Below, in pieces: positions 32,131 through 59,564 of a stretch of 64,000 bases of DNA. The DNA is from Gammaproteobacteria bacterium (GTDB lineage Bacteria; Pseudomonadota; Gammaproteobacteria; Ga0077536). The position numbers and the translations under genes were made by a program. Numbering within the stretch: position 1 is the first letter of the stretch; the number at the start of each line of letters is the position of its first letter. The notes under the pieces were generated by a model. That model was not told the origin of the DNA, did not search any database, and saw only the letters and a program-made list of their open reading frames with translations. Location of the stretch: contig CAXXLL010000003.1 of the NCBI GenBank assembly GCA_963662545.2, forward strand, positions 32,001-96,000, in the 5' to 3' direction.

Positions 32131-32131
32131 A

Positions 32132-33118: not shown

Positions 33119-33127
33119 CCTCCCCCA

Positions 33128-35450: not shown

Positions 35451-36743
35451 TTGGCAGAGAGCGAAGTCATGCCACCGAGACCCGCGTTCAACCGCAAATC
35501 TGAGACCACTGCGGCCGTCGCCGCCGTTTGCCCGTTCTGTTCGTTGCTATGCGACGATCTCGAGTTGCGGCAAACCGACGATCGAAGCTTCAAGATCACA
35601 CGCAATGGCTGCGCGCGTGCGCGCGCCGATTTCGCGCGTGCGCCCATCGTCTCCGAGCCGCTGGTCGGCGGCCAAAGCACCTCCCTCGAAAATGCGGTCG
35701 TTGCCGCTGCCCGCCTGCTAAAGCGCAGCGAGCAGCCCCTGATCGCGGGCCTCGCGACAGACGTCGACGGCATACGCGCCGCGGTCGACCTCGCCGAGCG
35801 ATGCGGCGGTATTTTGGACCATGTTCACGGTGATGTCATGAACGCCACGACCTCGGTTTTGCAGTCGCGCGGGTGGTATGCGACGACGCTTTCCGAATTG
35901 CGCAATCGCGCCGATTTCGTATTACTCGCCGGCGTCGATCTGAACGAACGCTATGAAAACCTGTCACGCCGGTGCCTGCGACCGGCAGCGAGCCTCCACC
36001 CGAAAAACCTCCGCAAGCGCCGAGTCGTATATCTGGGCGGCGCGGCGTCTGCGCCACGCGATGAATCCACCGAATGCATATCGTGTCGGGCTGAATCAAT
36101 GGCGGAAACCCTGCAAGCTTTATTGGCGACATTGAAAGGCGCGCGTCTGACCGCACGATCGATCGGCGGCGTATCGCGCAAAACACTCGGCCGGCTCGCT
36201 GACTCCATGAACGCGGCCGCCTACGCAGTCATCGTCTTTGCGCCGGCATCGCTGGGCGTTCATCGCGAGTCTGCGATAGCGGCGATCTGCGACATCGCCG
36301 ACGAACTGAACCGCGAAGGGCGCGGCGCCATCCTGAGCCTCAGTGGTGATGACGGTGGCCAGACGGCCGTGAGCACCTGTACGTGGATGACCGGCTATCC
36401 CTTACGCGTGTCCTTTGGAAAGACCCTTCACTATGACCCGGTGGCAAACAGCACAAACAAACTGATGGACTCGGGCGCGGTCGACGGTCTCGTCTGGGTC
36501 GACGCCTTTGGCCGCCATCCGGATCCGCCGGCCGGCAACGCGGCGACCGTCATCCTGAGCAGCGTGAAGACAGCGGCGGCGCAAACGGCCGCGGTTTATA
36601 TCCCGGTCGGTACCCCGGGCGTCGATCATTTCTCCCGTCTGCTGCGAACCGATTCGGTGGTGTCGCTCCCCCTGCCGGGGTTACGGCACGCAGGGCTGCC
36701 CGACGTCGCCGCCGTTCTCACTGCGATCACGAGCAGGCTTTGA
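35451..36743 (+). CDS. fhcB: formyltransferase/hydrolase complex subunit B
   Basis: CPFCSLLCDD, TTLSELRNRAD, WMTGYPLR, IPVGTPGVDH. Confidence 0.9.
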   Translation: MAESEVMPPRPAFNRKSETTAAVAAVCPFCSLLCDDLELRQTDDRSFKITRNGCARARADFARAPIVSEPLVGGQSTSLENAVVAAARLLKRSEQPLIAGLATDVDGIRAAVDLAERCGGILDHVHGDVMNATTSVLQSRGWYATTLSELRNRADFVLLAGVDLNERYENLSRRCLRPAASLHPKNLRKRRVVYLGGAASAPRDESTECISCRAESMAETLQALLATLKGARLTARSIGGVSRKTLGRLADSMNAAAYAVIVFAPASLGVHRESAIAAICDIADELNREGRGAILSLSGDDGGQTAVSTCTWMTGYPLRVSFGKTLHYDPVANSTNKLMDSGAVDGLVWVDAFGRHPDPPAGNAATVILSSVKTAAAQTAAVYIPVGTPGVDHFSRLLRTDSVVSLPLPGLRHAGLPDVAAVLTAITSRL

Positions 36744-36756
36744 GGAGACCACGCTG

Positions 36757-38421: not shown

Positions 38422-39311
38422 AGATCAATGGCGTGCTGATCGACAACACCTTTGCGGAAGCGTTTCCGATGAAGGCGACGCGCTTGATCATCACAGCGAT
38501 GAATGACACCTGGGCGAATCATGCCGCGCAGGCCTTGACCGGCTTCGCGACCTCTGTCATCGCCTGCGGTTGCGAGGCGGGTATCGAACGCCCGCTGACG
38601 CCCAGCGAAACACCGGACGGCCGCCCGGGCGTCGCGGTGCTCTTGTTCACCATGAGCAAGAAGGAACTCGGCAAGCAGATTCAAAATCGCGTGGGACAAT
38701 GTGTATTGACGTCCCCGACGAGCGCCTGTTTTGCAGGATTCGATGAAGGCGAACCCATTGATCTCGGCAAGCAGTTGAGATTTTTCGGCGACGGCTACCA
38801 GATCTCCAAAAAGCTCGGTACGCGACGCTACTGGCGAATACCGGTCATGGATGGCGAGTTTCTGTGCGAGGAAATGACCCGTTTCACCAAAGGCATTGGC
38901 GGCGGCAATTTCCTCATGCTCGCGCGTGACCAGGCCGCCGCCCTGGCCGCATCCGAGCGGGCCGTAGCGGCGATGCAGAAAATACGCGGGGTCATCATGC
39001 CCTTCCCCGGCGGCGTGGTGCGTTCGGGCTCGAAAGTCGGGTCGAAGTACAAGGCGCTGCTGGCGTCGACGAATCATCCCTTCTGCCCCACCCTGAGAGG
39101 CGCCGTCAGCAGCGCATTGACGCCGGATATCGGCGCCGTGCTCGAGATCGTCATCGACGGGCTCGACGTGGCGTCGATCGAGGAAGCAACCCGGGTCGGT
39201 ATCCGCGCCGCATGCCGTGGCCGCGGGCACGGTCTGATCCGCATCAGCGCGGGCAATTACGGGGGCAGCCTCGGGCCCTATCATTTCCACTTGCGAAAGA
39301 TCCTGCGATGA
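38418..39311 (+). CDS. fhcD: formylmethanofuran--H4MPT formyltransferase
   Basis: DNTFAEAF, TSVIACGCEAG, TPDGRPG, RSGSKVGS, SAGNYGG. Confidence 0.95.
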   Translation: MKINGVLIDNTFAEAFPMKATRLIITAMNDTWANHAAQALTGFATSVIACGCEAGIERPLTPSETPDGRPGVAVLLFTMSKKELGKQIQNRVGQCVLTSPTSACFAGFDEGEPIDLGKQLRFFGDGYQISKKLGTRRYWRIPVMDGEFLCEEMTRFTKGIGGGNFLMLARDQAAALAASERAVAAMQKIRGVIMPFPGGVVRSGSKVGSKYKALLASTNHPFCPTLRGAVSSALTPDIGAVLEIVIDGLDVASIEEATRVGIRAACRGRGHGLIRISAGNYGGSLGPYHFHLRKILR

Positions 39312-40129
39312 GCGCACTGATCTTCGAGTTGCTCGACCCACCGGGGCGCAGTCTCGACCTCGCGGGCTTGAATCCCGCCAGCCTCGCCGGAAAATCGCTC
39401 GATGCAATCCGCCGGCTGCGCCTCCCGTATGGCCGCCGGCGGAAAGCACTGGGTGATCTTTTCAAGGTATCGGGGGACGCATCTTCCGAACTCAGCATCC
39501 TCGGCGTCAACCGGCACTGCCACCAGATCGGCCGGGGCATGGCTGACGGCATACTCGTCGTCCGCGGCCATGCCGGCGACGGTCTCGGGCGCGAAATGAG
39601 CGGCGGTCAGATACGTGCGAAAGGCAACGCCGGCGACGGCGTCGGCGCCGGCATGACGGGCGGTAGCATCACACTCACCGGATCTGTCGGCGACCGCGCG
39701 GGTGGTCTCGTTCCCGGTGCGACCCGCGGCATGAACGAAGGCATGATCCGGATTGGAAAATCTGCCGGCGCGAGGACGGGTGAACGCATGCGGCGGGGCT
39801 TTATTGTCATTGCGGGCGATGCGGGAGCGCACACCGGCGAGCGTATGATCGCCGGCACCATCGTCGTACTCGGCCAGTGCGGTGTCCACCCTGGTATTGG
39901 CATGCGCCGCGGCACGCTGCTGCTCGCCAAAGCGCCCACCTCGATGACACCGACGTTCAACGACTGCGGTGAATTCGAACTCGCGATCATCGCGATCCTA
40001 AAGAACTACATCGCCTCTCATGACCGCCGTCTAAAGCGCAGGCTCGAAATCTTCACCCGTGCGCGCCGCTGGTGCGGTGACATGTCATACGGCGGCAAGG
40101 GCGAAATCTTCATTGCGAGCGAGAACTGA
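39308..40129 (+). CDS. fhcC: formyltransferase/hydrolase complex subunit C
   Basis: GXGXG beta-helix repeats, RMRRG, MIAGT; ATG overlaps the fhcD stop. Confidence 0.92.
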   Translation: MSALIFELLDPPGRSLDLAGLNPASLAGKSLDAIRRLRLPYGRRRKALGDLFKVSGDASSELSILGVNRHCHQIGRGMADGILVVRGHAGDGLGREMSGGQIRAKGNAGDGVGAGMTGGSITLTGSVGDRAGGLVPGATRGMNEGMIRIGKSAGARTGERMRRGFIVIAGDAGAHTGERMIAGTIVVLGQCGVHPGIGMRRGTLLLAKAPTSMTPTFNDCGEFELAIIAILKNYIASHDRRLKRRLEIFTRARRWCGDMSYGGKGEIFIASEN

Positions 40130-40139
40130 GAGCGGATCC

Positions 40140-41804
40140 ATGCCCACCAAGCGCATTGACAGAAAAGGAAGGTTTCGCGGACGCGCGCTCGACGACGAGG
40201 CCGTCGCGCAGGTCGTGGGCCTCGTCGGCCAGGGTCCGTACCGACGCGATTTACTGATCGAATACCTGCATCTCATTCAAGACGTGCACGGCTGCCTGAG
40301 CGCCGAACACCTCGTGGCCTTGGCGCATTGTCTGCGATTGTCGACCACGGAGGTTTACGAAGTCGCCACTTTTTATCATCATTTCGATGTCGTCACCGCG
40401 GATGAGAAACGCCCGCCGGATCTGACCGTCCGGGTGTGCGATTCGATCACCTGCGAGATGTTCGGCGCGAGTGCGCTCTTCGATGAACTCGATGAGATTT
40501 TCGGTGAGAAGGTACGGGTGCAACGCGTGCCCTGCGTGGGCCGCTGTCACGGCGCACCCGTCGCGGTTGTCGGTCAGAACGCGATCGAACGCGCCGACAC
40601 CGCGAGCCTGATCGAACGGGTCGAACAGTGTGCGACGGCACCGCAGCCGACCTCGCATATCCCGTTCGACGAATACTGCAATGTCGGTGGATACGAGCTG
40701 TTGAAAAAATGCGTAAGGGGTGAAATCCAACGCGAGGCGGTCATCGACATCCTGGCCGATTCCGGCCTGCGAGGACTGGGCGGCGCCGGATTTCCGGCCG
40801 GCCGGAAATGGAGCATCCTGCGCGGCCAGCCGGCGCCCCGGCTGATCGCGGTCAACATCGACGAAGGCGAGCCGGGAACATTCAAGGATCGCTACTACCT
40901 CGAACGCGATCCGCACCGGTTCCTCGAGGGCTTGCTGATCGCCGCGTGGGCGATCGAAGCCGAGGGCTGCTATATCTACCTGCGAGATGAATATGCCGCG
41001 TGCCGCCGCATGCTCGTGGACGAACTCACACGCCTCGCCGCCGATCCGCCGGCGCCGCTCCCCGTCATGGAACTTCGCCGCGGTGCAGGCGCTTATATCT
41101 GTGGTGAAGAGTCAGCCATGATCGAATCGATCGAAGGTAAACGCGGCATGCCCCGGCTGCGCCCGCCTTACGTCGCCGAAGTCGGGCTGTTCGGGCGGCC
41201 GACGCTCGAACACAATATGGAAACCCTCTACTGGGTCCGCGATATCGTGGAAAAAGGGGCCGCATGGTTCAGCTCGCACGGCCGTCGCGAACGCTCGGGC
41301 TTGCGGGCATTCTCCGTCAGCGGCCGCGTCAACAACCCCGGTGTGCATCTGGCACCGGCGGGGATCTCGGTCAGCGAACTGATCGATGAATATTGCGGCG
41401 GCATGCTGGACGGCCATGCCTTCTACGGCTACTTCCCGGGCGGCGCGTCGGGCGGGATCCTCCCCGCCAGTCTCGGCGACCTGCCCCTCGATTTCGACAC
41501 GCTGCAGGAATACGGGTGCTTCATCGGCTCGGCAGCCATTATCATTTTGTCGGATCAGGACAATGCGCGGAGCGCGGCGCTCAATGCCATGCGGTTCTTC
41601 GAGCACGAATCCTGCGGTCAATGTACCCCGTGCCGGGTCGGCACTGCGAAGGCCGCGACGCTGATGGAGCGGCCCGCCTGGGATGCCCCGCTGCTCGAAG
41701 ATTTGGCGCGGGCCATGGAGGACGCATCGATCTGCGGCCTCGGGCAGGCGGCGCCGAATCCGCTGCGATGTGCAATAAAATACTTTCCGCAGGAATTCGA
41801 GTGA
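40140..41804 (+). CDS. NAD-dependent formate dehydrogenase beta subunit (fused NuoE/NuoF-like, Fdh1B type)
   Basis: RRDLLIEYLHLIQD, GLRGLGGAGFP, DEGEPGTFKDR, GAYICGEES, ESCGQCTPCR. Confidence 0.9.
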   Translation: MPTKRIDRKGRFRGRALDDEAVAQVVGLVGQGPYRRDLLIEYLHLIQDVHGCLSAEHLVALAHCLRLSTTEVYEVATFYHHFDVVTADEKRPPDLTVRVCDSITCEMFGASALFDELDEIFGEKVRVQRVPCVGRCHGAPVAVVGQNAIERADTASLIERVEQCATAPQPTSHIPFDEYCNVGGYELLKKCVRGEIQREAVIDILADSGLRGLGGAGFPAGRKWSILRGQPAPRLIAVNIDEGEPGTFKDRYYLERDPHRFLEGLLIAAWAIEAEGCYIYLRDEYAACRRMLVDELTRLAADPPAPLPVMELRRGAGAYICGEESAMIESIEGKRGMPRLRPPYVAEVGLFGRPTLEHNMETLYWVRDIVEKGAAWFSSHGRRERSGLRAFSVSGRVNNPGVHLAPAGISVSELIDEYCGGMLDGHAFYGYFPGGASGGILPASLGDLPLDFDTLQEYGCFIGSAAIIILSDQDNARSAALNAMRFFEHESCGQCTPCRVGTAKAATLMERPAWDAPLLEDLARAMEDASICGLGQAAPNPLRCAIKYFPQEFE

Positions 41805-41866
41805 GATGGATGCAAAGATCGCCGAAGGTACCGTGATCCGCTTCAAGCTCGATGGGCGCGAGGTCG
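41748..41866 (+). repeat. direct repeat 1A (fdh beta 3' end plus abortive fdh alpha start)
   Basis: 119 bp, 12 mismatches (counted by eye) to 42747-42865. Confidence 0.9.
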
Positions 41867-42014
41867 CTTCTCGCAATGCCGAGCCCCGCTACGCCGCCGC
41901 CCGAGGTATCGTTCTGTCGTCACACCGCGAACCGGGCCGCTTCTCAGCGTCGACGCGCGCGCTCGAAGCCCGTCGCAGCATCTCGAAAAACCCGCTTTGA
42001 ATGATCGTTGTCTA

Positions 42015-42314
42015 TCAATGGTAATCCTCTTCGCGCTGATGGCGAATCGCGAGTATCGTCACAGTGGATGGATCTTCGATCTCGAACAAGACCACGTACC
42101 CTGCCGATCCGAAAGGGATCAGGAGTTCACGCAGGAATGGATTGGTGTCATCCGCCTTGCGGCAGCTAAACGGAAAATCCTGCAGGAATTCGACGGCTTT
42201 GGCTATCGCATCACGAGCCCTCCTGGCTGCTTGAAGGTCCCTCTCAAGCAGGTATTCGTAAAGACGGAACAGATCCTCCCGTGCTACCCGGGTATAACGG
42301 ATCCGATAGCTCAA
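42015..42314 (-). CDS. type II TA toxin, RelE/ParE family
   Basis: Y-I-YT--AREDL-RLYEYL, PFSCRK, RELLIPFGSAGYVVLF, ILAIRHQRE. Confidence 0.88.
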   Translation of the reverse strand: MSYRIRYTRVAREDLFRLYEYLLERDLQAARRARDAIAKAVEFLQDFPFSCRKADDTNPFLRELLIPFGSAGYVVLFEIEDPSTVTILAIRHQREEDYH

Positions 42315-42592
42315 TCCTCTGAGCCCACACCGCGAGACTCAGCCACTTTGAGCATGTCATCAAGTTCAGAAAGAACGACATCAGCGGCGTAATACTCATT
42401 GGTCCGCTTTGCTTCATCGCGGGAAACCAAGCCACGTGAAATGAACTCCTCACGCACCTGCCGATGCAATATGGATGCTTTTATGGATTTTTCTACGAAA
42501 CTCGACAGACTCTCCCCCTCAGTCAGGACACTTTCAGCAGCTTTTCGTAGTTCGGGGGTCACTCGAAGTGTTGGAATATTGGCAGTTTTCAA
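42311..42592 (-). CDS. putative antitoxin (YlcI/YnfO-like, ribbon-helix-helix)
   Basis: KTANIPTLRVTPELRKAAESVL--GESLSSFVE; 4-bp overlap with the toxin. Confidence 0.8.
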   Translation of the reverse strand: MKTANIPTLRVTPELRKAAESVLTEGESLSSFVEKSIKASILHRQVREEFISRGLVSRDEAKRTNEYYAADVVLSELDDMLKVAESRGVGSED

Positions 42593-42606
42593 AATGACCT
42601 CTTGCG

Positions 42607-42623
42607 ACGCATTTGCGATGCGT
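42607..42623 (-). promoter_or_regulatory. putative TA autoregulatory operator
   Basis: acgcat-N5-atgcgt inverted repeat just upstream of the antitoxin start. Confidence 0.5.
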
Positions 42624-42746
42624 TAAGTATGGCGTTAATTACCGGACTGGGCAAGTGGCCGATACCTTTATGAATACCTCGTGCCAGGTTATTGGTGTGG
42701 TTCAATAGGATTTTGAGGGATCTGACCCTGAGATGTCCTCGGATAC

Positions 42747-42865
42747 GCAGCGCCAAATCCGTTGCGATGCGCAATAAAATACTTTCCGGAGGAATTCGAA
42801 TGAGATGGACGCAAAGACCGCCGATCGAACCGTGATCCGCTTCAAGCTCGATGGCCGCGAGGTCG
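42747..42865 (+). repeat. direct repeat 1B (orphan fdh beta 3' end plus functional fdh alpha start)
   Basis: 119 bp, ~90% identical to 41748-41866. Confidence 0.9.
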
Positions 42866-45564
42866 AAGCGCTGCCCGGCGAAACCATCCTCAATGCCGCG
42901 CGCCGCACCGGTACCGAGATCCCGACGCTGTGCCACATGGACGGCTACCGTGCGGACGGCAATTGCCGCGCCTGCGTGGTCGAGATCAAGGGCGAACGCG
43001 TGCTCGCACCGGCGTGCTGCCGCCTGCCGAGCGAGGGGATGGAAGTGGAAGCCAGCAACGAGCGCGCGCGGTTTAGCCAGCGCATGGTCGTCGAAATGCT
43101 GCAATCCGATATGCCCGAGGGCGGCGCTTCGCCCTACACACCGCGTTCCGAACTCGACCATTGGTGCGAATTTCTCGGTGTCACCGAACCGCGTTTCCCA
43201 CGGCGCGCACAACCGCAAAAGGACCTCTCCAACCCGGCGATCGCCGTCAATCTCGACGCCTGTATCCAGTGCACGCGCTGTGTGCGAGCGTGCCGCGAGG
43301 AGCAGGTCAACGATGTCATTGGCTATGCCTTCCGCGGCACACATTCGAAGATCGTGTTCGATCTCGGCGACCCCATGGGCGACAGCACCTGCGTGAGCTG
43401 CGGCGAATGCGTGCAGGCCTGTCCGACCGGCGCATTGATGCCCGCCGAAGGCGCCGCCAATTTCGAGCCCGATCGCCAGGTCGAGTCGGCCTGTCCGTAT
43501 TGCGGTGTAGGCTGCCTCCTGACCTTCAATATCAGGAACGATCGCATCATCTACGTCGACGGCCGCGACGGCCCGTCGAACAACAGTCGCTTGTGCGTGA
43601 AAGGCCGCTACGGCTTCGATTACGTCCATCACCCCGATCGGCTGACCCGGCCCTTGATCCGCAAAGAGGGCGCCGCAAAGAGCTCCGAACTACTGACCCC
43701 GTCAGATATACCTGCATACTTTCGAAACGCGAGCTGGGACGAAGCCCTTGCATTCGCGAGTGGCGGACTCAAGGCTATACGCGATGCGCAAGGCGGCCAG
43801 GCGCTCGCAGGATTCGGCTGCGCCAAAGGCTCCAACGAGGAGGCGTATCTGTTTCAGAAGCTGGTCCGAACGGGCTTCGGCACGAACAACGTCGATCATT
43901 GCACCCGTCTTTGTCATGCATCGTCCGTGGCAGCGATGTTGGAGACCATCGGCTCGGGCAGCGTTTCCAACCAGGTGGCTGACGTGGCCCAGGCCGAAGT
44001 GATCATCGTGATCGGTGCGCGGCCGACGATGAACCATCCGGTCGCCGCCACTTTCATGAAGAACGCGGCCAAGGCCGGCACGACCCTGATCCTGATGGAT
44101 CCCTACCGCGCCGATCTCGCGCGGCACGCCGATTATTTTCTCCAGTTTCATGCGGACACGGACGTGCCGCTGCTGAACGCCATGATGCATACCATCATCG
44201 ACGAAAACCTGCACAATCCGGCGTTTATCGAAGCGCACACCGAGGGTTTCGAATCGCTCCAAGCCTGCGTGACGAACTACAGCCCGGAAAAAGTCGCTCC
44301 CATCTGCGGCATTCCCGCCGCCGCCATCAAGGAGGTTGCCCGCAAGTATGCGACGGCCAAGGCGTCCATGATTTTCTGGGGCATGGGGATTTCGCAGCAT
44401 GTTCATGGCACGGATAATGCGCGCTGCCTGATCGCGCTCGCCTTGCTCTGCGGGCAGATCGGCCGGCCGGGTTCCGGCATCCACCCGCTGCGCGGTCAGA
44501 ATAACGTTCAGGGCGCCTCGGACGTCGGTTTGATCCCCATGGTTTATCCGGATTACCAACCCGTCGGGGACGAAGCGGTACGGCGCAAGTTCGAAAAATT
44601 CTGGGGCACCGAACTCGACCCCAACCCGGGTCTGACGGTCGTCGAAATCATGGATGCCGTGCACGAAGGCGCGATCAAGGGTATGTACATCATGGGGGAA
44701 AACCCGGCGATGTCGGATCCCAATCTCAATCATGCGCGTGCAGCCCTGGCGAAGCTCGAGCACCTGGTCGTGCAGGATATTTTCTTCACCGAGACGGCGG
44801 GGTTCGCTGACGTGATTCTGCCGGCGTCGGCGTTTCCGGAAAAAACCGGTACCTTCACGAACACCGATCGACGCGTGCAAATAGGCCGCCAGGCCATCGA
44901 GCCGCCCGGCGATGCGCGCCACGATATCTGGATCATCGAGGAAATGGCGAGGGGCCTCGGCCTCGACTGGAATTACTCGGGCGTCGATGCCGTATTCGAC
45001 GAGATGCGTGCGGCGATGCCCAGTATCGGCGGCATCACATGGGACCGCCTGCAACGCGAACATTCCGTGACCTATCCCTGCACGCGCGAAGGCGATCCAG
45101 GGCAACCGATTCTGTTCGAACAGGATTTTCCGACGCCGAACGGCCGCGGTAAGTTCGTACCGGCCGAATACACCCATGCCGCCGAGCTGCCCGACGACGA
45201 ATATCCGAAAATATTCATGACCGGCCGTCAGCTAGAACACTGGCACACCGGAAGCATGACCCGCAACGCGCGTGTCCTCGACGCACTGGAGCCGGAACCC
45301 GTGATCAACGTTCACCCGACGGATATGGACGAGATCGGGGTCGAAGCAGGCGAATTCGTGCGCGTCGAATCACGGCGCGGCGCCGTCGTGGCCCGCGTGC
45401 GAGCGGATAGCGGAATGCAGACCGGTTCGATCTTCATGGCGTTCTGCTACGTGGAAGCGGCGGCTAACCTGCTGACCACCGAAGAACTCGATCCCGTCGG
45501 AAAGATCCCGGAATTCAAATACTGCGCCGTACGAATTTCAAGGCAGAAGGCCAAAGTCGCCTGA
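42805..45564 (+). CDS. formate dehydrogenase alpha subunit (Fdh1A-like, Mo/W-bis-PGD, Cys ligand)
   Basis: N-terminal 2Fe-2S/4Fe-4S motifs, CPYCGVGC, HCTRLCHAS, PLRGQNNVQG, PEFKYCAV. Confidence 0.93.
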   Translation: MDAKTADRTVIRFKLDGREVEALPGETILNAARRTGTEIPTLCHMDGYRADGNCRACVVEIKGERVLAPACCRLPSEGMEVEASNERARFSQRMVVEMLQSDMPEGGASPYTPRSELDHWCEFLGVTEPRFPRRAQPQKDLSNPAIAVNLDACIQCTRCVRACREEQVNDVIGYAFRGTHSKIVFDLGDPMGDSTCVSCGECVQACPTGALMPAEGAANFEPDRQVESACPYCGVGCLLTFNIRNDRIIYVDGRDGPSNNSRLCVKGRYGFDYVHHPDRLTRPLIRKEGAAKSSELLTPSDIPAYFRNASWDEALAFASGGLKAIRDAQGGQALAGFGCAKGSNEEAYLFQKLVRTGFGTNNVDHCTRLCHASSVAAMLETIGSGSVSNQVADVAQAEVIIVIGARPTMNHPVAATFMKNAAKAGTTLILMDPYRADLARHADYFLQFHADTDVPLLNAMMHTIIDENLHNPAFIEAHTEGFESLQACVTNYSPEKVAPICGIPAAAIKEVARKYATAKASMIFWGMGISQHVHGTDNARCLIALALLCGQIGRPGSGIHPLRGQNNVQGASDVGLIPMVYPDYQPVGDEAVRRKFEKFWGTELDPNPGLTVVEIMDAVHEGAIKGMYIMGENPAMSDPNLNHARAALAKLEHLVVQDIFFTETAGFADVILPASAFPEKTGTFTNTDRRVQIGRQAIEPPGDARHDIWIIEEMARGLGLDWNYSGVDAVFDEMRAAMPSIGGITWDRLQREHSVTYPCTREGDPGQPILFEQDFPTPNGRGKFVPAEYTHAAELPDDEYPKIFMTGRQLEHWHTGSMTRNARVLDALEPEPVINVHPTDMDEIGVEAGEFVRVESRRGAVVARVRADSGMQTGSIFMAFCYVEAAANLLTTEELDPVGKIPEFKYCAVRISRQKAKVA

Positions 45565-45674: not shown

Positions 45675-46058
45675 TTATGTGGCTCTTGATTTAGAGTAGA
45701 GTTTGACATCCCTTAGTCCCTTGAAATCGGTATCTTGGGTCCACAGAACTGCGCCATATTTCTGTGCGGTTGCATAAATAATGCTATCCGCCAACGGCAA
45801 TTTGTGTTCAATACCGTAACAGGCGGCATCTACAGCCAGCTCGCTGTCCAGGGATACAACTTTTCCTTGCTCCATATGAGCTATTGCTTCAAGGGCTGAT
45901 TCTTCGTCCCTCTGACGCACAATGCTCTTGAAAACCTCGGTAATGGTGATACTGGGCACCAATAACTCTTCTAAAACCTCTATCGGTTTAGCGAATGAGC
46001 CCGCATTCTTGTCGCCGGCGAAATATGATAACCATCCCGATGAGTCGACGACATTCAT
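45675..46058 (-). CDS. type II TA toxin, VapC/PIN domain
   Basis: VVDSSGWL, ITEV, LPLADSIIYATA, LWTQDTDF acidic PIN residues. Confidence 0.9.
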   Translation of the reverse strand: MNVVDSSGWLSYFAGDKNAGSFAKPIEVLEELLVPSITITEVFKSIVRQRDEESALEAIAHMEQGKVVSLDSELAVDAACYGIEHKLPLADSIIYATAQKYGAVLWTQDTDFKGLRDVKLYSKSRAT

Positions 46059-46261: not shown

Positions 46262-46425
46262 GGCCGATACTCCATCGATAATAGCACCGTTTTACGATAT
46301 CTCTATCGATAAGCTCCGTCAAGCCACGTAACGAACGAGTCTCACGGATCCCCACATACTCGCTAGGAAAAGCGATCGAAAACTAATGAGATGTAGGTGC
46401 ACCGAACCTCAATTAAGCGCGCGAG

Positions 46426-47200
46426 CACGAACACCGATCGACGCGTGCAAATAGGCCGCCAGGCCATCGAGCCGCCCGGCGATGCGCGCCACGATATCTG
46501 GATCATCGAGGAAATGGCGAGGGGCCTCGGCCTCGACTGGAATTACTCGGGCGTCGATGCCGTATTCGACGAGATGCGTGCGGCGATGCCCAGTATCGGC
46601 GGCATCACATGGGACCGCCTGCAACGCGAACATTCCGTGACCTACCCCTGCACGCGCGAAGGCGATCCAGGGCAACCGATTCTGTTCGAACAGGATTTTC
46701 CGACGCCGAACGGCCGCGGTAAGTTCGTACCGGCCGAATACACCCATGCCGCCGAGCTGCCCGACGACGAATATCCGAAAATCTTCATGACCGGCCGTCA
46801 GCTAGAACACTGGCACACCGGAAGCATGACCCGCAACGCGCGTGTCCTCGACCTACTGGAGCCGGAACCCGTGATCAACGTTCACCCGACGGACATGGAC
46901 GAGATCGGCGTCGAAGCGGGCGAATTCGTGCGCGTCGAATCACGGCGCGGCGCCGTCGTGGCCCGCGTACGGACGGATCCCGGGATACAGCCCGGCAGCC
47001 TATTCATGGCGTTTTGCTATGTGGAAGCTGCCGCGAATTTGTTGACGACCGAAGAGCTGGACCCGGTAGGAAAGATCCCCGAATTCAAATATTGCGCAGT
47101 GAGATTGAGGAAAGCCATTGACAATTCAGCTCCGCGCTCCCACATTCCACGGTTTAATTCCGCACAGGGCGATGGTCGCGAACGAGACGGGCATCGATGA
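46426..47200 (+). pseudogene. orphan duplicate of the fdh alpha 3' end (direct repeat of 44856-45530) with a different C-terminal tail
   Basis: offset 1570 bp; near-identical 5' part, strongly diverged at synonymous sites in the last ~130 bp; frame open to 47200. Confidence 0.9.
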
Positions 47201-49499: not shown

Positions 49500-50270
49500 T
49501 CAAGCAGGCGTATTTGGGGATTTCCGCCGTTTTTGGCTTTGGTTGAGACGATAGCTCTCGCCGTTCATTTCCAGGATATGGACAGGGTGGGTCAGGCGGT
49601 CCAGCAAAGCCCCGGTCAGACGTTCCGAGCCGAATATCTCCGTCCACTCATCGAACGGCAAGTTGGAGGTCACCATGATCGAGCCCCGCTCGTAGCGCTG
49701 GCTGAAGACTTCGAACAGCAGCTCGGCGCCGGTCTTCGAGAGCGGCACGAAGCCGAGTTCGTCGATGATCAGAAGGTGATACTTTGCCAGTTGCTTCTGC
49801 AGGCGCAACAGGCGTTTTTCATCCCTGGCCTCCATCAGTTCATGAACCAGGGCGGCGGCCGTGATGAAGCCGACGGAGAGCCCCTTTTGGCAGGCCGCCA
49901 GACCGAGACCGAGGGCGATATGGGTCTTGCCGGTTCCGCTGTTGCCGAGCGCGATGATATTCTCACGACGCTCTACGTATTCGCATCGCGCCAACTCCAG
50001 AACCAGCATCTTGTTGAGCGAGGCGATGGCCTTGAAGTCGAAGCTGTCGAGGCTTTTGACGGCGGGGAACCTAGCCTGTCTGCTCCGCCGCTCGACCATG
50101 CGGCGCTCACGGTCGATCAGTTCCAACTCGGTCAGACGGACAAGATACCGCACAGGGTCGGCGCCCTCGGTGGCGCATTGGCGGGCCAGCTTGTCGTATT
50201 CGCGCAGGAACGTCGGCAGTTTCAGGGTCTTGAGGTGATGGGCCAGCAACACTTGCGGCGTATCGGTCAT
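49500..50270 (-). CDS. istB: IS21 helper ATPase
   Basis: GNSGTGKTH Walker A, LLIIDELGF, TSNLPF, ALLDRL. Confidence 0.95.
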   Translation of the reverse strand: MTDTPQVLLAHHLKTLKLPTFLREYDKLARQCATEGADPVRYLVRLTELELIDRERRMVERRSRQARFPAVKSLDSFDFKAIASLNKMLVLELARCEYVERRENIIALGNSGTGKTHIALGLGLAACQKGLSVGFITAAALVHELMEARDEKRLLRLQKQLAKYHLLIIDELGFVPLSKTGAELLFEVFSQRYERGSIMVTSNLPFDEWTEIFGSERLTGALLDRLTHPVHILEMNGESYRLNQSQKRRKSPNTPA

Positions 50271-51766
50271 GACGCGCCTCCACCCAACAAGCTCATATAA
50301 CTGGCGGCGGCCGTGGTCGCCACGTTGGCCCGAGGCAGGTAGGGATAGATATCCAGGTCGAGTTTGGGCGGGCGTCGCTCGATACGGCACAGCACAAGGT
50401 GTTTGACGGCGTCGTAGCCGATCGCGCCCAGGCGCAGGGCGTCCTTCACCGCGCCGTGAAGCACCTCGAGATCGAAGGTCTCCAGAAGCCGAAGGACCTG
50501 GACGTATTCCCGCTTGCCGGCCTTGCCCATGCGCGCCTCCAGGAGACGGCGCAGGGTTGGGAAGGCATCAGGCAGTTCCCATCCGGCTAGCGGCGCGGCC
50601 TGATCCAGGGCACCGATCTTGTGCTCCAGCAAAGGCAGGTAGTGGATCGGATCGAAGACCCTATCTTCCCGGTCGTAGGAACGGGGGTGTCGGGCAATGA
50701 TCCCGGCGCCGCAACCGATAACCACCTCGTGGACATAGCCACGGATCCAGACTTCCTGATGGCCGTAGGCGACGGGCACGGAATAGTCATTCGTCCGGTA
50801 GCGCACCAGGGACAGCGAGTTGACCCGCGTGCCCTGCTTGTCGCACGCGTCGAACGGTGCCGGCAGTGGCCTCTTCAACGCTTCGCGGTCACGCACAAAC
50901 CGTTCGCCGATGCTCTCGCGGTGGCCGCGCAGGACGTCGTCTTGCCGTTTGCGGCATTGTTCCTCCAGGTAAGCGTTGAAGGCGTCCCAGCTCGCGAACC
51001 GGGGAAGCGGCGTCATGAAGTTCCGTCGGGCGTAGCCAACCACCCCCTCAACATTGCCTTTGTCGTTGCCCTTGCCGGGACGGCCGTAACGGTCCTCGAA
51101 GAGGTAATGGGACTGCAGTCCGCTGAACGCTCGCGTTCGTTGTCGCGTGCCATCCGGCAAGATGCGCGACACCAGGCACTTGTCGTTGTCGTAGAGAATC
51201 GATCGGGGAACACCGCCGAAGAAGGCGAAGGTTCTGTTGTGCCCGTCCAGCCAGGCCTCCGTCGTCGCTGACGGGTAGGCCGCAACGAAGCAGGCATCGC
51301 TGTGGGGAAGTGTCATGACGAAAAAATGCGCCCGATACTTGACGCCGGCGATGATCGCATCCGCCTCGCCAAAGTCCGCTTGAGCATGGCCCGGAGGATG
51401 TGACAACGGCACAAACATCTCACGCCGACGAAGGCGCCGTTCCCGAACGTAATCCTTCACGATGGTCTCTTTGCCCGTGAAGCCATGTTCGTCGCGAAGG
51501 CGCTCGAATATACGCTTCGCCGTGTGGTGCTGCTTACGGTGAACCGTTCGGTCCTCCTCCAGAATACGGTCGATGATATCCGTGAAGGGGGCCCGTTTCG
51601 GGCGTTTCGGTGGCTGGCGTCGCCGATATCCCGGCGGTTCCGAATGCCGCAGCATCTTCCTCACCGTCTCGCGCGCAATGCCAAACCGACTTGCCGCCTC
51701 TCGCTGGCTCAGACCATCAACATGGCAGGCCAGCCGAACGCGCAGATATAGGTCCACGGTGTACAT
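50267..51766 (-). CDS. istA: IS21 transposase
   Basis: AQADFG, ILYDN, KGNVEG DDE motifs; stop overlaps the istB start. Confidence 0.95.
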   Translation of the reverse strand: MYTVDLYLRVRLACHVDGLSQREAASRFGIARETVRKMLRHSEPPGYRRRQPPKRPKRAPFTDIIDRILEEDRTVHRKQHHTAKRIFERLRDEHGFTGKETIVKDYVRERRLRRREMFVPLSHPPGHAQADFGEADAIIAGVKYRAHFFVMTLPHSDACFVAAYPSATTEAWLDGHNRTFAFFGGVPRSILYDNDKCLVSRILPDGTRQRTRAFSGLQSHYLFEDRYGRPGKGNDKGNVEGVVGYARRNFMTPLPRFASWDAFNAYLEEQCRKRQDDVLRGHRESIGERFVRDREALKRPLPAPFDACDKQGTRVNSLSLVRYRTNDYSVPVAYGHQEVWIRGYVHEVVIGCGAGIIARHPRSYDREDRVFDPIHYLPLLEHKIGALDQAAPLAGWELPDAFPTLRRLLEARMGKAGKREYVQVLRLLETFDLEVLHGAVKDALRLGAIGYDAVKHLVLCRIERRPPKLDLDIYPYLPRANVATTAAASYMSLLGGGAS

Positions 51767-51933
51767 CCTCCCGCCTTCCATCTCAAAAAAGATCGAAGGC
51801 TACAGGTGGCAGAGTTTTACTCCGCCCGCGGCTGGGAAATCCCGCCGCTTCCGTGGACTAATTTGTCACCGCCGTTCTCACGTATGTAGCATAGGCAATC
51901 AACTGACCTTGACTAGAGATCGAAAAGGCGCCC

Positions 51934-52683
51934 TCAACCCAATGGATCTATCCGACTTAATTCAAGTAACTCACGTATCAAGGGTTGCGCATTGTTTCGC
52001 GACGGAACCTCCGTCTCAATGCGATACAAATAACCCGGCAGCTCATCGCACACGATGAAGGAATAGCTCTTGTTCGCAAAGCGTTCGAATAATTCGCGTT
52101 TGGGATCGTTGAGATACGGCTGAAAGCTGATCTCGAAGCCCTGCCACTCGCGGCCGTCAAATGTAAATGTCTTCGGCGTCACCGTCGCGGATTGCGCCAG
52201 GGCGAACTTGATGCGCCGCTGGAAATAGCGCCAGCGTTCGCGCGAACCTCCATCGGGATCGGTCAGCCTGTTCATTTCGTAGACATCGCCCTGCAGATAC
52301 ACCTTTATCACCGGGTTTACGGTCGCGCTGTCGACGGGTGATACGGGGAAATTGCGTTCGCCAGTCAAAAACTCGACCGACGCGACCTTGGTTCCATCGT
52401 CGTTAATTTTCTGGATTACGAATCGGACTCGATCGGAAAACCCGGTTTCGAGCGAACCTGCCTTTTCAAAGTGGTAAGTCAACTCCATCGCATGCGATAC
52501 CGATTTCAACTGATCGGTGAGCCACAATCGAGTCTCGGCCTCGGAAAACTCGATGCCATCGGCTGCCTCGGGTTCCTGGGCGGTGACGTTCGACCACACT
52601 ACTGTGATCGTGATAACGGACAGGCACAAGCTTGCAATAGCTTGGTGAAACCACCGATATTTCGCCAATCGACTAATCATCAT
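51934..52683 (-). CDS. hypothetical exported protein downstream of xoxJ
   Basis: signal-peptide-like N-terminus; overlaps the xoxJ stop; no recognised motif. Confidence 0.65.
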   Translation of the reverse strand: MMISRLAKYRWFHQAIASLCLSVITITVVWSNVTAQEPEAADGIEFSEAETRLWLTDQLKSVSHAMELTYHFEKAGSLETGFSDRVRFVIQKINDDGTKVASVEFLTGERNFPVSPVDSATVNPVIKVYLQGDVYEMNRLTDPDGGSRERWRYFQRRIKFALAQSATVTPKTFTFDGREWQGFEISFQPYLNDPKRELFERFANKSYSFIVCDELPGYLYRIETEVPSRNNAQPLIRELLELSRIDPLG

Positions 52684-53557
52684 CTGCGATCTCCCGAATG
52701 ATCAGTTCGCGCATCGGCACGCCGTACTCCGCCAGGATTTGATCGATCTCCGCCTGATTCTCCGCGATCAATCGATTGATCTGGGCCTTCCATTCATCCT
52801 CGCCAAACCGCACTGCCATCGAGATCTGATAATTAAACCGCAAGCCGGGTTCATTGTTCATTGGAATGACCCGAATTTCGTGATCCTGAATTTCTTTGGC
52901 GTAATAGCCCGCGATTGGCCCCCAGATGAAGGTCAGGTTTATTTTGTCCTGGACGAGATCGCGCTCGATGATCTTGCCCGGGGTTTCCCGGGCGTCTCCC
53001 GTCATCGTCTGATAGGGCGTCCCATACTCCATCAAGTCGACCTGGAATATCCAGTCGGTCGTCGGCCCGCGGTCCCAGATCCCGATGCGGAGTTTTTCTT
53101 TCTGCTCGACCGTCAGCTCTTTCAGATCGTCCTGCGATTCGATGAAGTCTAGCCCCCGGCCCTTGACGTAGACCATGGCCCACGACGAATGCAGATAGGG
53201 GCGGGTCGTCGCCGCCATGTCGAAGTTCTCGATGGTCCCCATCACGAGATCACATTTATAGCTTCCATCAGATGTATCGTTATTACGCAGCGTGTTCCTG
53301 ATGAATCCGATCCGCTGTGGAAACCATTCGTACTCAAGCGGCAGGCTCAGTTTGCGCGCAAACAATTCCGCGATCTTGTTCTCGTAACCGAGCCCTTGCT
53401 TGTTCGACATCGGCAGATTGGAAGGATCGGCACACACGCGAAGCGCCGTACGCTCAGTCACCGGATCTGCTGAAACTGGCGCGCCCAATACGACGCCGAA
53501 GAGCACCAGCGCCAATCGGATATATCGCGCGGATCGGACCTTGAGGAGAGAATTCAT
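52673..53557 (-). CDS. xoxJ: XoxJ/MxaJ-like periplasmic binding protein
   Basis: LRVCADPSNLPMSN, GYENKIAEL, GFIRNTL, CDLVMG, WGPIAGY, ILAEYGVP. Confidence 0.88.
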   Translation of the reverse strand: MNSLLKVRSARYIRLALVLFGVVLGAPVSADPVTERTALRVCADPSNLPMSNKQGLGYENKIAELFARKLSLPLEYEWFPQRIGFIRNTLRNNDTSDGSYKCDLVMGTIENFDMAATTRPYLHSSWAMVYVKGRGLDFIESQDDLKELTVEQKEKLRIGIWDRGPTTDWIFQVDLMEYGTPYQTMTGDARETPGKIIERDLVQDKINLTFIWGPIAGYYAKEIQDHEIRVIPMNNEPGLRFNYQISMAVRFGEDEWKAQINRLIAENQAEIDQILAEYGVPMRELIIREIADDD

Positions 53558-53616
53558 TGGCAAGGCATGATCTAAGAAAAGGAGAAGAGAATCATGCAAT
53601 AGGTGGCTTGCTTTAT

Positions 53617-54069
53617 CTACTTGGCCTTGTTTTCAAGCGCCTTTTTCATCTTCTTGATCGCGCGGTTGACCATATTTCTCGCAATCTTGATGTTCGCGAG
53701 GTTCTCTTCGATCTGCGCTATATTGGCCGGTGGATCCGCGTCGCCGACGACGATCGCGCCGACCATGCCCGTGCTTATATGCGGAGTGCATTTGTAGATG
53801 TAAGCGCCTTCCTTTTCGACGGTGATGCTAAACCCCTCCTCGCCCATCTTCGAATTCCAGCCCTCGGCGCCTTCGGGGATCATGCCTTCCAGCGCTGCCG
53901 TATCGTGCCCGATCATATTCATGAATCTGACCGTATCACCGGGTTGCGCAAAGGTAACCAGAGGCCTCCACTGGGTGATAACGCCTTTGACGATATGCTC
54001 CTCCGCCGATACCCATGAGCTCACCAGCGCTCCCGCCATGCAAAGGATGACCTGGAATATTCTTTTCAT
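53617..54069 (-). CDS. pseudoazurin-like type 1 blue copper protein
   Basis: signal peptide, PGDTVRF, GHD, YKCTPHISTGMVGAIVVG (His, Cys, His, Met ligands), C-terminal helical tail. Confidence 0.88.
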   Translation of the reverse strand: MKRIFQVILCMAGALVSSWVSAEEHIVKGVITQWRPLVTFAQPGDTVRFMNMIGHDTAALEGMIPEGAEGWNSKMGEEGFSITVEKEGAYIYKCTPHISTGMVGAIVVGDADPPANIAQIEENLANIKIARNMVNRAIKKMKKALENKAK

Positions 54070-54247
54070 TCTATTGAACTCCGTTGAACTTACGCTGCCG
54101 TCGCCTTGGCGGCCGTTCCGCACCGGTTTCGGACTTTCACAATAGGCTATCGGCAACACCATGAACGCGGGCTGAATTACGCGGCGCACCTTTATACCAG
54201 AGCGAAACCGATAGTCAATGAAATGGCTGAACCTCGGACCAATAAAT

Positions 54248-54282
54248 AAAAAACCCGGCACTTCGGACGAAGTGCCGGGTTT
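54248..54282 (-). terminator. rho-independent terminator / stem-loop after xoxF
   Basis: aaacccggcacttc-ggac-gaagtgccgggttt hairpin with a T-run on the minus strand. Confidence 0.8.
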
Positions 54283-54341
54283 AAGCTCATAAAGTCAGTT
54301 TAAGACTGATCTTGTTAATTTATCGCTATCAACGATGCTGC

Positions 54342-56204
54342 TTACGGCAGGCTGAAAACAGTCAACACGCCGCCTAAGCGGGTGAAGCTGTTCAAACCCT
54401 TGTAGGCACCGACCGCACCGAGGCCGTCGGTGTCGTTGATGAGGCCTGCGGCCATGCCGATACCGGCCCAACCGCCAACGCCCGACAGCACGCCGACATA
54501 TTGCTTGCCGCCGTGACCCCAGGTATTGGTGTTGGCGATGATCCCGGAAGGCGTCTTGAACTTCCAGAGCAGCTTGCCGCTCTTGGCGTCAATGGCCTTC
54601 AGGTAACCGCCTAGCGTGCCATAGAACACGACGTCACCGGCCGTCGCCAGCGCACCGCTCCAAACGGAGAAGCGCTCCGGAATCGACCAGACGATCTTGC
54701 CCTTGTCCGCATCCCAGGCAATGAAGTTACCCAGGTTGTTATTGTCGGCGCTGTTGCCGAATTCCGGACCAGGCGAGACACGGCCGGCCGGGAACATGCT
54801 GAGCACAGCGTTCACGTACGGCTGACCCGCCACATACTCACCACCGCTTACCGGCTCGTAATTCATGCAGACGTGGTTCGTCGGCACGTAAAACAGGCCT
54901 GTGCGCGGGCTGTAAGCCGCGGGCTGCTGGTCCTTGGTACCGAGTGCGGCCGGGCAGATGTTGGTGGTATTGACGTCTTCACCCTGAAAGTGGGTGCTGT
55001 ATTTGGCGACCACCTGGGGACGGCCCGTCTTCATGTCGACATGCGTGGCCCAGTTGACCGCGGGATCGTATTTCTCGGCAACGAGAAGCGCGCCGTTGGT
55101 ACGGTCCAGCGTATAGCCGAAGCCGTTGCGGTCGAAATGGACGAGGGCTTTGGTGTCTTTGCCCTTGACCTTCATGTCGACGAGGATCATCTCGTTGATG
55201 CCGTCGTAGTCCCACTCATCGTGGGGCGTCATCTGATAGACCCAGTGGGCCATCCCGGTATCGACGTCACGCGAGATAATGGCCATGGTCCACTTGTTGT
55301 CGCCGGGGCGAACAACCGGGTTCCAGGTCGACGGGTTGCCGGTACCGTAGTAGAACGCGTTGCGCTCTTTGTCGTACGGCCACCAACCCCACACCGAGCC
55401 ACCGCCGATCTTCCACTGATCGCCCTTCCAGGTCTTCAGCGAAGAATCCGCGCCGACGGGCTGACCCAGCGAAGTGGTCTTCTCAGGATCGAACAGCATG
55501 TCCGAATCAGGACCCATGCTGTAGGCGCGCCAGACGCGCTTGCCGTCACTCAGGTTATACGCATTGACCCAGCAGCGCACGCCAAACTCGGCACCGGACA
55601 TCCCCGTGATGACTTTGTCCTTCATCACATGCGGGGCATTGGTGTTGGTTTGACCCAGCTTGGGATCACCGTTCTTGATCGACCAGACGACTTTGCCGTC
55701 CTTCGCGTTCAACGCGACCAGCGTGGTGTCGGCCTGCTGCAGAATGATCTTGCCTTCACCGTAGCCTACTCCGCGGTTGACCACGTCACAGCACATGACC
55801 GGGACGGTCTCGTCGTAGTCTTGAACGGGTACGTACTCCCAGACGATCTCGAGGTTGTCGAGATTGATGGCGAACACGTTGTTGGGAAACGCTGCAACGA
55901 TATACAGCGTGTCATGCGACAGACCCGTTTCTGACCCCGGCAGGACGAGTGGTCCACCTTCGTGCCCACGCAGGACACCGGTGGAAAACGTCCACGCCGC
56001 CTGGAGCTTGTGCGCGTTCTGGTTGTTGATTTGCTTCAACTCCGAATAACGCCAGTTCCAGTAGTTACCACCGGGAAATACCCAGTAGTTGGGGTCTTGC
56101 ATTAGCTTCTCAAGTCCTGCGTTGGCGGACACCTGTGCGGTGCCCACGAACGCCACAAGAGAGGCTGCCGCGATGAGCCATCGCTTAAACGATGTTTTCC
56201 TCAT
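54342..56204 (-). CDS. xoxF: lanthanide-dependent PQQ methanol dehydrogenase
   Basis: signal peptide, RGHEGGPL, vicinal [25 protein letters not shown] (extra Ln-binding Asp), strong RBS ggaggagg. Confidence 0.95.
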
Positions 56205-58686: not shown

Positions 58687-59478
58687 GTGCAATCGGCCGG
58701 CATTCGAAACTTCGACCCCGATGAACTCGCATCGCTGTTCGATCTCAAGTATCGCGGCAGCGTCGAGCTCGGCCCAGACCCCGCGCGGCGGCAGCGCTTC
58801 AACTATTACAATCCAGACGATCACTATGAAGCCCTGATCCGGAAGCTGGTGCAGCCGCAAACCCGCTGGCTCGAGGTGGGTTGCGGGCGCCATATTTTCC
58901 CCAGTAATCCGGCGCTCGCGAAAGAGCTGTCCGCGCGTTGCGCCTCGCTCACCGGAGTCGATCCTGATGCAACCATCGAGGAAAACCCGTTCGTGCACGG
59001 CAAGGTGCGCGGGATGGTCGAGGACCTGGACCCCGAGCTCCAATTCGATCTCGTCACGCTCCGCATGGTCGCGGAGCACGTCGCCGACCCCGCCGATATG
59101 CTCAAGACCCTTTCGAATCTCGTGGTTCCGAACGGGATTGTAGTCATCTACACCATCAACAAGTGGAGCCCTGTTCCACTTGCCACGGCAGTAACGCCTT
59201 TCTCGCTGCACCATCCGATCAAGTACGTTCTGTGGCGCGGGGAGGAAAAAGATACCTTTCCTACGACTTACAGGATGAACACACGCGCGCAACTGCGCGA
59301 ACTGTTCTCTACAGCAGGATTTGCGGAAGACTGCTTCTGGTATCTCGACGACTGCCGAACCTTTCAGAGATTCAGGCTCTTGAACCTGCTCGAACTCAGC
59401 GCCTGGCGAGTACTCAAGGCAATGGGTTTAAGGTATCCGGAAAACTGCCTTCTGGGCGTTTACCGCCGCCGCGGTTAA
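58687..59478 (+). CDS. class I SAM-dependent methyltransferase
   Basis: WLEVGCG, GVDPD, FDLV, MVAEHV, L-PNG. Confidence 0.8.
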   Translation: MQSAGIRNFDPDELASLFDLKYRGSVELGPDPARRQRFNYYNPDDHYEALIRKLVQPQTRWLEVGCGRHIFPSNPALAKELSARCASLTGVDPDATIEENPFVHGKVRGMVEDLDPELQFDLVTLRMVAEHVADPADMLKTLSNLVVPNGIVVIYTINKWSPVPLATAVTPFSLHHPIKYVLWRGEEKDTFPTTYRMNTRAQLRELFSTAGFAEDCFWYLDDCRTFQRFRLLNLLELSAWRVLKAMGLRYPENCLLGVYRRRG

Positions 59479-59564
59479 GGCATCGAGGACGTGCTTATTT
59501 CCAATCCGATTGAACACGTATCCGTAGCCTAAAGCGGTCGCACGGTCCAGACGACTTATCACCC

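Follow-up and report, generated by a model that had tools for sequence, protein, structure and literature searches.

In a stretch of 64,000 nucleotides from a gammaproteobacterium of the Ga0077536 lineage (GenBank assembly GCA_963662545.2, contig CAXXLL010000003.1, positions 32,001 to 96,000; hereafter the window), the gene for a small exported cupredoxin stands between xoxF, which encodes a lanthanide-type methanol dehydrogenase, and the accessory gene xoxJ, the place where the canonical xoxF-xoxG-xoxJ cluster has the gene for the c-type cytochrome XoxG. Judging from sequence and gene distribution, we favour, with a confidence somewhat above even, the reading that this blue copper protein took over the role of XoxG, so that electrons would pass directly from XoxF to copper and then to an oxidase. 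The arrangement is real, is conserved widely as a variant of the xox system and has apparently not been published.

A cupredoxin gene in the place of xoxG

All genes of the cluster lie on the minus strand. The gene xoxF (56204-54342; 620 amino acids; TIGR03075, 684 bits against a cut-off of 480) is followed by the cupredoxin gene (54069-53617; 150 amino acids including a signal peptide; PF00127, 43.7 bits against 21.2) and by xoxJ (53557-52673; a periplasmic binding-protein-fold accessory protein; TIGR03871, 263.5 bits against 212), whose end is overlapped by a gene for an exported hypothetical protein (52683-51934; no Pfam or NCBIfam family). Reading frames and family matches bear out the order given in an earlier note on this DNA, namely xoxF, a hairpin, the cupredoxin gene, xoxJ and the exported hypothetical, and the position of xoxJ downstream of xoxF is a trait shared with canonical xoxFGJ clusters. 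The same note had seen no CXXCH haem motif in the genes flanking the cupredoxin, and this held: among frames of at least 30 amino acids between positions 44000 and 64000, the sole CXXCH falls at 58968-59510, outside the xox cluster. The copper site was likewise intact as described, with His55, Cys94, His97 and Met102 all in place and invariant in alignments of 36 and of 38 homologues; this set of ligands on a cupredoxin fold is that of a type 1 blue copper protein.

By sequence, the solved pseudoazurins all rank at the top against the window cupredoxin, and they occupy Foldseek ranks 1-27 for its predicted model (predicted local distance difference test score 86.4). The barrel and two C-terminal helices, predicted here at 117-126 and 131-149, are common to this protein and to classical pseudoazurin (TIGR02375; Alcaligenes, Achromobacter, Paracoccus, Sinorhizobium), as is the ligand set His, Cys-x-Pro-His-x4-Met. 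In contrast to the classical protein, however, it stays below the TIGR02375 cut-off (82.2 bits against 109.85; a classical control reached 160) and has no N-terminal Lys/Met loop of the docking face. In a 36-protein alignment, whose five classical members were taken from plasmid records, this loop of 6-7 residues is present in 5 of 5 classical pseudoazurins and in 0 of the 31 others, and the classical proteins form their own branch in the corresponding tree (SH-like approximate likelihood ratio test, SH-aLRT, 100). On these sequence traits the window protein is best named a short-loop pseudoazurin. Some relatives carry two tandem cupredoxins after xoxF or before xoxJ (L041, L042, L047, L049, L070, L077); the first of the pair, about 600 bases upstream of the match, has a long N-terminal extension resembling a membrane tether.

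The XoxF branch linked to cupredoxin

The window XoxF carries the full lanthanide-type signature on a pyrroloquinoline quinone (PQQ) propeller: vicinal cysteines at 138-139, the Glu of GAEFG at 206, the Asn of GNPS at 290 and, from 329, DEWDYD, whose D-Y-D supplies the catalytic and the extra Asp. Its nearest solved relatives are 6DAM (E 3.8e-263, 878 bits) and 6OC5 (E 4.3e-248, 828 bits), as against 608 bits for 4MAE and at most 573 bits for MxaF chains. We take 6DAM and 6OC5 to be references of clade 5 (XoxF5), and by closeness to them, in a tree that held no XoxF4 reference, the window enzyme is assigned to the XoxF5 type.

XoxFs linked to cupredoxins form one branch in a FastTree phylogeny of 93 rows and in a quick IQ-TREE run of 37 rows (SH-aLRT 100 for 19 rows). 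The branch is marked by an LPxxxTGL insertion at 88-95, by Cys211-Trp212, by VSG at 452-454 and by Asn465. The 452-465 stretch presumably matches the loop that lines the active-site funnel in MxaF, the proposed cytochrome docking area. That all cupredoxin-linked XoxFs form a single clade, as FastTree suggested, did not hold, since IQ-TREE places the enzyme of locus L209 outside, and this enzyme lacks the signatures. The charges of the XoxF, cupredoxin and XoxG sets gave wide and overlapping ranges without a usable signal, and a predicted XoxF-cupredoxin complex, from alignments of 38 rows, scored 0.05, which weighs neither for nor against a contact. The XoxF at the Ga0077536 locus is 88% identical to that of the window; Ga0077536 XoxF and its tetrahydromethanopterin (H4MPT) genes have been described, and nothing is said on the acceptor in the available portion of that paper (PMC8121065).

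In one relative (G024; L149:7072-8919), xoxF no longer encodes the Glu, Asn and D-x-D motifs and sits, at 57% identity, on a long branch within the family; the cupredoxin gene is kept beside it and xoxJ is lost. To judge from these missing motifs, its product is probably a pseudo-enzyme.

Electron carriers in the source genome

The source genome (5.58 Mb in 3 contigs, 96.85% complete) has one copy each of xoxF, xoxJ and the cupredoxin gene, and the cupredoxin is its only PF00127 match. A whole-genome search for the cytochrome partners, which the earlier note had put forward as a check, found none: no protein exceeds the cut-offs of the XoxG (TIGR03874), MxaG (TIGR03872) or PedF (TIGR04494) models. 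Profiles made from 11 XoxG-like proteins of relatives, one of which matches XoxG 6ONQ at E 1.4e-14, and from 17 more diverse ones brought up nothing but haem tails of quinohaemoproteins and two other cytochromes, one a dihaem c5-like protein and the other c4-like. The two best of these matches, considered as XoxG, are actually the dihaem c5-like protein and the haem tail of a quinohaemoprotein split by an insertion sequence. For XoxG2/MauO, which is among the four XoxG groups that have been named (PMC5874918, PMC5723320), the negative rests on a reading of the genome's CXXCH inventory and not on a sequence search. A dedicated c-type XoxG or MxaG, as in canonical xoxFGJ systems, was thus found neither in the cluster nor in the genome.

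The genome also has pqqC and two A-type oxidases, one of them with a subunit II without haem c, together with petB, petC and, in our reading, an alternative-complex-III-like locus. It encodes 11 PQQ-propeller proteins with a haem motif, N-terminal in eight and C-terminal in three, a large quinohaemoprotein expansion, plus one more that is split: at G000:C3:893147-896600 the insertion sequence divides the dehydrogenase gene between PQQ domain and haem tail.

Distribution among Gammaproteobacteria

The conserved synteny that the earlier note had proposed to look for is strong among relatives. Within a family set of 81 genomes, 46 have an xoxF orthologue (at least 80% identity) and 45 of these 46 have the cupredoxin; in 42 the slot is filled, with the cupredoxin gene on the same strand within 1.5 kb downstream of xoxF, while the remaining four have the two genes on separate contigs or yielded no cupredoxin. 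No XoxG-like match was obtained in 30 of the 46, including the single-contig genomes G019 and G033 and the two-contig genome G004. More distant, extra xoxF-like paralogues in the family mostly adjoin a cytochrome gene of their own, and one of them, in G081, has its own XoxJ-cytochrome fusion. Records titled Hydrogenophaga or Klebsiella (L056, L058, L060, L068, L074) contain xox loci that fall within the uncultured family, and these titles are probably placeholders.

A scan of named contigs with the cupredoxin alignment gave 317 relatives, and most of the best 80, which were read, adjoin xoxF, xoxJ or both. For a sample independent of the cupredoxin, 401 genomes of the class were searched with XoxF; 44 matched and 39 were read, four family members and one other genome being left out. 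The slot after xoxF holds xoxG, a cupredoxin gene or neither, and xoxG occupies it at the XoxF5 loci L210, L212, L220, L225 and L228. Cupredoxins were counted at E <= 1e-38, which excludes weaker matches in G127 and G356; G421 was counted outside the XoxF branch, and G413 was placed within it by the 85% identity of a partial gene. Counted in this way, the 19 genomes of the branch have the cupredoxin in 18 cases and XoxG in 7, against 4 and 17 in the other 20 genomes. Fisher tests on such distributions overstate their significance, as kin are not independent. Eleven of the 12 branch genomes without XoxG were tested for MxaG, and 8 are without it too, 7 of these 8 having the cupredoxin; among 18 further genomes picked for having the cupredoxin, XoxG occurs in 3. 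Methylohalomonas lacus HMT 1 has two XoxFs of the type of this branch, two cupredoxins, MxaF and MxaG, and no XoxG was found in it. The clearest cases are two small single chromosomes, G485 (2.1 Mb) and G484 (2.5 Mb), which carry xoxF-cupredoxin-xoxJ and in which neither XoxG nor MxaG was found. PF13442 matches only 3 proteins in the former and 4 in the latter, by our reading a subunit II of an oxidase, cytochromes c5 and c4 and a SorB-like cytochrome; just one PQQ dehydrogenase reaches E <= 1e-60 in G484.

A second XoxF5 lineage, without the branch signatures, also has a cupredoxin in the slot (L209, L303, L304). At L209, in genome G421, the XoxF5 gene is followed by cupredoxin and xoxJ, and no XoxG or MxaG was found in the genome. 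In the cupredoxin tree, the G421 protein and those of Enterovibrio, Poseidonocella and Granulosicoccus form a branch apart (SH-aLRT 99). As the cupredoxin was found in 1 of 6 genomes of its family, the G421 locus may have arrived as a transferred island or reflect faulty binning. A metagenome scan, of whose 68 loci the best 23 were read, added two xoxF-cupredoxin-xoxJ clusters (L303, L304) and one locus, L307, that ends after the cupredoxin gene. The short-loop pseudoazurins of this second branch include those of cultured Enterovibrio species, of Poseidonocella sedimentorum and of a Granulosicoccus bin (P0127, P0137, P0141, P0178, P0214).

The spacer between xoxF and the cupredoxin gene

Downstream of xoxF, on the minus strand, lies a terminator-like hairpin (54282-54251) of 14 pairs followed by a T run, with a folding energy of -30.5 kcal/mol (z -5.29; 0 of 200 shuffles as stable). 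Similar hairpins occur in 44 of 51 spacers between xoxF and cupredoxin genes, some genomes being counted twice, against 32 of 510 shuffles. Between hairpin and cupredoxin gene, on the same strand, is a promoter-like site (54218-54191; TTGACT-N16-TATAAA, with TG before the -10 box), which we infer to be a promoter for the cupredoxin gene; a consensus promoter scan does not flag it. The pattern recurs in 7 of 39 upstream regions, against 80 of 1950 shuffles, and 6 close relatives share CTCTGGTATAA. The gene order of the "xox operon" in the earlier note thus stands, but operon overstates the case for xoxF and the cupredoxin gene, which are divided by the terminator-like hairpin and by a distinct promoter-like site. 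The hairpin could be taken as an argument against a partnership of XoxF and cupredoxin, which we ruled out: of 8 XoxF5 loci where xoxG comes after xoxF, 6 have a hairpin of this kind in the corresponding place, which makes it a general feature.

Seventeen RNA runs contain part of the stretch, and we used contigs of 4 runs from two studies, one of them of sponge metagenomes. All 4 runs have contigs over xoxF, and 2 have some that reach parts of the cupredoxin gene. In the two sponge runs the contigs over xoxF stop within the hairpin, at 54274 and 54286, and among the RNA contigs listed none lies over xoxJ or runs across the hairpin. Such contigs cannot rank genes and may reflect DNA carry-over; they are a weak hint only and were not used as evidence.

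Proposed electron path and alternatives

In the path that we propose, XoxF would oxidise methanol with PQQ and a lanthanide, the sites for both being present in its sequence. Reduced PQQ would then release single electrons, probably via the vicinal disulfide, to the type 1 copper of the short-loop pseudoazurin, from which they would reach CuA in an A-type haem-copper oxidase, aa3 or caa3. Pseudoazurin potentials lie well above that of PQQ, so that the first transfer would be downhill. In favour of the path speak the slot that the cupredoxin gene fills, the many genomes in which no XoxG or MxaG was recognised, the changes shared by the XoxF branch, the second lineage with a cupredoxin in the slot, and the presence of pqqC and of two A-type oxidases. 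XoxJ and the two hypothetical proteins of the locus (see below) would retain their usual accessory roles, and formaldehyde and formate would be oxidised by the products of H4MPT and formate dehydrogenase genes that lie at a distance of 6-22 kb. The cupredoxin is probably not exclusive to XoxF and may serve other periplasmic donors. A wider proposal, which we hold tentatively and with slightly less than even confidence, is that an XoxF5 branch spread over at least 10 families of mostly uncultured Gammaproteobacteria has been remodelled for a dedicated short-loop pseudoazurin (La, Cu and CuA, with no haem before the oxidase), and that the swap took place at least twice, through an xoxF-cupredoxin-xoxG-xoxJ intermediate that is still extant.

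A number of observations weigh against direct transfer to copper. The anti-correlation with xoxG that the earlier note had considered is real insofar as XoxG is scarcer where the cupredoxin is present, but it is not absolute. An XoxG-like gene is found in 16 of the 46 family genomes with xoxF, always on another contig than xoxF. In favour of the direct route, such genes do not track xoxF, occurring also in 7 of the 35 family genomes without an xoxF orthologue, and in the 9 regions read their neighbours are unrelated to methanol oxidation. In the class sample, XoxG is kept in 7 of the 19 branch genomes and MxaG occurs in 3 of the 11 tested genomes without XoxG, and in G246 (95% complete), which has a branch XoxF, neither XoxG, MxaG nor the cupredoxin was found. 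At this last locus (L235) xoxJ and the hypothetical are present, and a SorB-like cytochrome gene follows on the other strand. The distribution counts are, moreover, not independent, because the main branch is one evolutionary event. The cupredoxin is also present in 20 of the 35 family genomes without xoxF: in genus g4 it occurs in 6 of 7 genomes with xoxF in 0 of 7, and in genus g7 it occurs without xoxF in 4 of 6, as in part of g6. Some of these cases are assembly breaks, but those of g4, g7 and part of g6 look like real losses; at L045, L050 and L074 the 7 kb flanks of the cupredoxin gene contain no xoxF. Finally, the 11 quinohaemoproteins of the source genome are other possible donors to the cupredoxin, and classical MxaFI is specific for cytochrome cL.

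The strongest alternative, which we nevertheless consider unlikely, at less than half the weight of direct transfer, is a relay in which XoxF reduces a haem protein first and the pseudoazurin acts as second carrier, in place of cytochrome cH or c550. The first acceptor would be an unlinked XoxG where one is present and otherwise c5, c4, the haem of a caa3 subunit II or an unrecognised cytochrome. The last is a real possibility, because it took expression data to reveal the actual acceptor in Methylococcaceae, the unlinked XoxG4 (PMC5723320, PMC5874918). Characterised XoxF and MxaFI enzymes all use a c-type cytochrome (PMC8546591). A relay would also suit locus L302, itself an argument against direct transfer, where xoxF, cupredoxin, xoxG and xoxJ stand in tandem with an intact XoxG (TIGR03874, 238 bits, above cut-off). 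This locus disproved our generalisation, valid for 53 loci, that clusters have either xoxG or the cupredoxin gene but not both. L302 and L303 have almost the same cupredoxin, so that one cluster can house both carriers and can also lose xoxG; a relay would account for this, and so would an initial redundancy with later loss. In some genomes of the XoxF branch there are, in addition, clusters of cupredoxin-cupredoxin-xoxG-like genes without xoxF, beside polyamine genes (L089:4749-6954, L106:6106-8295, L290:5396-7610), and the source genome has no c551-type match beyond the c5-like protein, which leaves the slot of a second carrier open. Against this, a relay needs a first acceptor in G485, G484, G019, G033 and the source genome, where only generic cytochromes are found, and it leaves both the frequent loss of XoxG and the surface-loop changes of the branch XoxFs unexplained.

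Less probable still, and in our view improbable, is that the pseudoazurin is an all-purpose periplasmic shuttle from quinohaemoproteins and bc1 to an oxidase, placed beside xoxF for co-regulation. It is the sole PF00127 protein of a genome rich in haem-bearing PQQ-propeller proteins, azurin serves type II quinohaemoprotein dehydrogenases (PMC8348568), and the persistence of the cupredoxin in genera without xoxF, its own promoter-like site and its staying with xoxJ, away from xoxF, in several genomes are all compatible with such a role. A short-loop pseudoazurin gene also stands directly ahead of petABC, 6-9 kb from xoxF, at L151:5479-8566 (G040) and L288:9213-12408 (G378), suggesting a general carrier in these two genomes. 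In G040, which is closed at 1.5 Mb and has xoxF and xoxJ, no XoxG or MxaG was found; G378 has three XoxG. However, G484 has the cluster but no other strong PQQ dehydrogenase, no known acceptor would remain for XoxF in 30 of 46 family genomes, and a general role is compatible with direct transfer as an added function. A relay to copper nitrite or N2O reductase in a denitrifying methylotroph, the first of which the earlier note had offered as an alternative, or a role in copper handling apart from methanol oxidation, is very improbable: classical pseudoazurin donates to nitrite, NO and N2O reductases (PMC12848317) and a related cupredoxin is encoded near copper-resistance genes on a Methylophaga plasmid, but neither NirK nor NosZ exceeded its cut-off in the source genome (which leaves the nitrite-reductase branch unsupported there) or in any of the 4 other family genomes tested, the partial NirK matches being multicopper-oxidase-like proteins, while the xox-linked cupredoxins all lack the classical N-terminal loop and no FNR-box-like match was found in 51 spacers.

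Relation to known systems

Compared with the xoxF-xoxG-xoxJ cluster of Methylorubrum extorquens (XoxF 6OC5, XoxG 6ONQ), the window has the same full active site of XoxF5 type, the same downstream xoxJ and a small exported redox protein between the two, and a hairpin follows xoxF in many xoxG loci too. What differs is that this redox protein is a type 1 copper protein and that XoxF has branch-specific insertions. An XoxF5-type enzyme is likewise shared with Methylomonas LW13, whose XoxG4 is unlinked (6DAM is from a related methanotroph); unlike both systems, the source genome yielded no XoxG, MxaG or PedF. The amicyanin and azurin of methylamine dehydrogenase, whose donor cofactor is tryptophan tryptophylquinone, and the azurin of type II quinohaemoprotein alcohol dehydrogenase are precedents for a cupredoxin that takes electrons from a periplasmic quinoprotein, as we infer here, but the type II enzyme passes them via its own haem whereas the window XoxF is haem-free. 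In mau clusters amicyanin and azurin substitute for each other (PMC2680597).

All characterised methanol dehydrogenases are said to reduce a dedicated c-type cytochrome (PMC8546591), and XoxF enzymes to have poorly understood natural acceptors (PMC6028718). In the available portions of the literature searched, no haem-free PQQ-lanthanide enzyme that reduces a cupredoxin was found, nor any paper that places a cupredoxin in a xox cluster or names one as XoxF acceptor, although supplementary neighbourhood figures could show it. If direct transfer to copper is correct, a methanol dehydrogenase would for the first time have a partner without haem, the short-loop pseudoazurin; lanthanide, copper and iron would all be tied to marine methanol turnover, and methylotrophy in many genomes without xoxG would be explained. 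The RNA contigs over xoxF from two studies, one of them of sponge metagenomes, make the lineage a candidate methanol sink in habitats of that kind.

Neighbouring genes and further observations

The exported hypothetical protein encoded at 51934-52683 has a homologue in 50 of the 81 loci clustered. It is found in xoxG-type clusters too (L215, L217, L218, L220, L225, L228) and is therefore a general xox accessory gene. Upstream of xoxF, on the minus strand, lies a conserved gene for a small exported Cys-containing protein (57144-56752; no family found), which occurs near xoxF in both cupredoxin-type and xoxG-type loci. Searches of the ESM Atlas gave neither hypothetical a name, the 51934-52683 protein matching unnamed clusters only.

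Genes for formaldehyde and formate oxidation (fae, mch, fhcB/A/D and formate dehydrogenase subunits) lie at 29465-45564, with no single strand assigned, and are separated from the xox cluster by an IS21-type element and other genes. Matches to TIGR03126, TIGR03120, TIGR03121, TIGR03119 and TIGR01591 exceed their cut-offs there, and that to the fhcB model TIGR03129 falls below. The 3' part of the formate dehydrogenase alpha gene is present a second time (46397-47200), just downstream of the full gene and of a PIN-domain gene (45675-46058). The IS21-family element (istA, istB; 49500-51881) is inserted directly after the xox cluster and is multicopy, because RNA contigs run from it into several other sequences. 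The same transposase-like frame occurs twice elsewhere in the window, at 12996-14393 and 27966-29363, on opposite strands.

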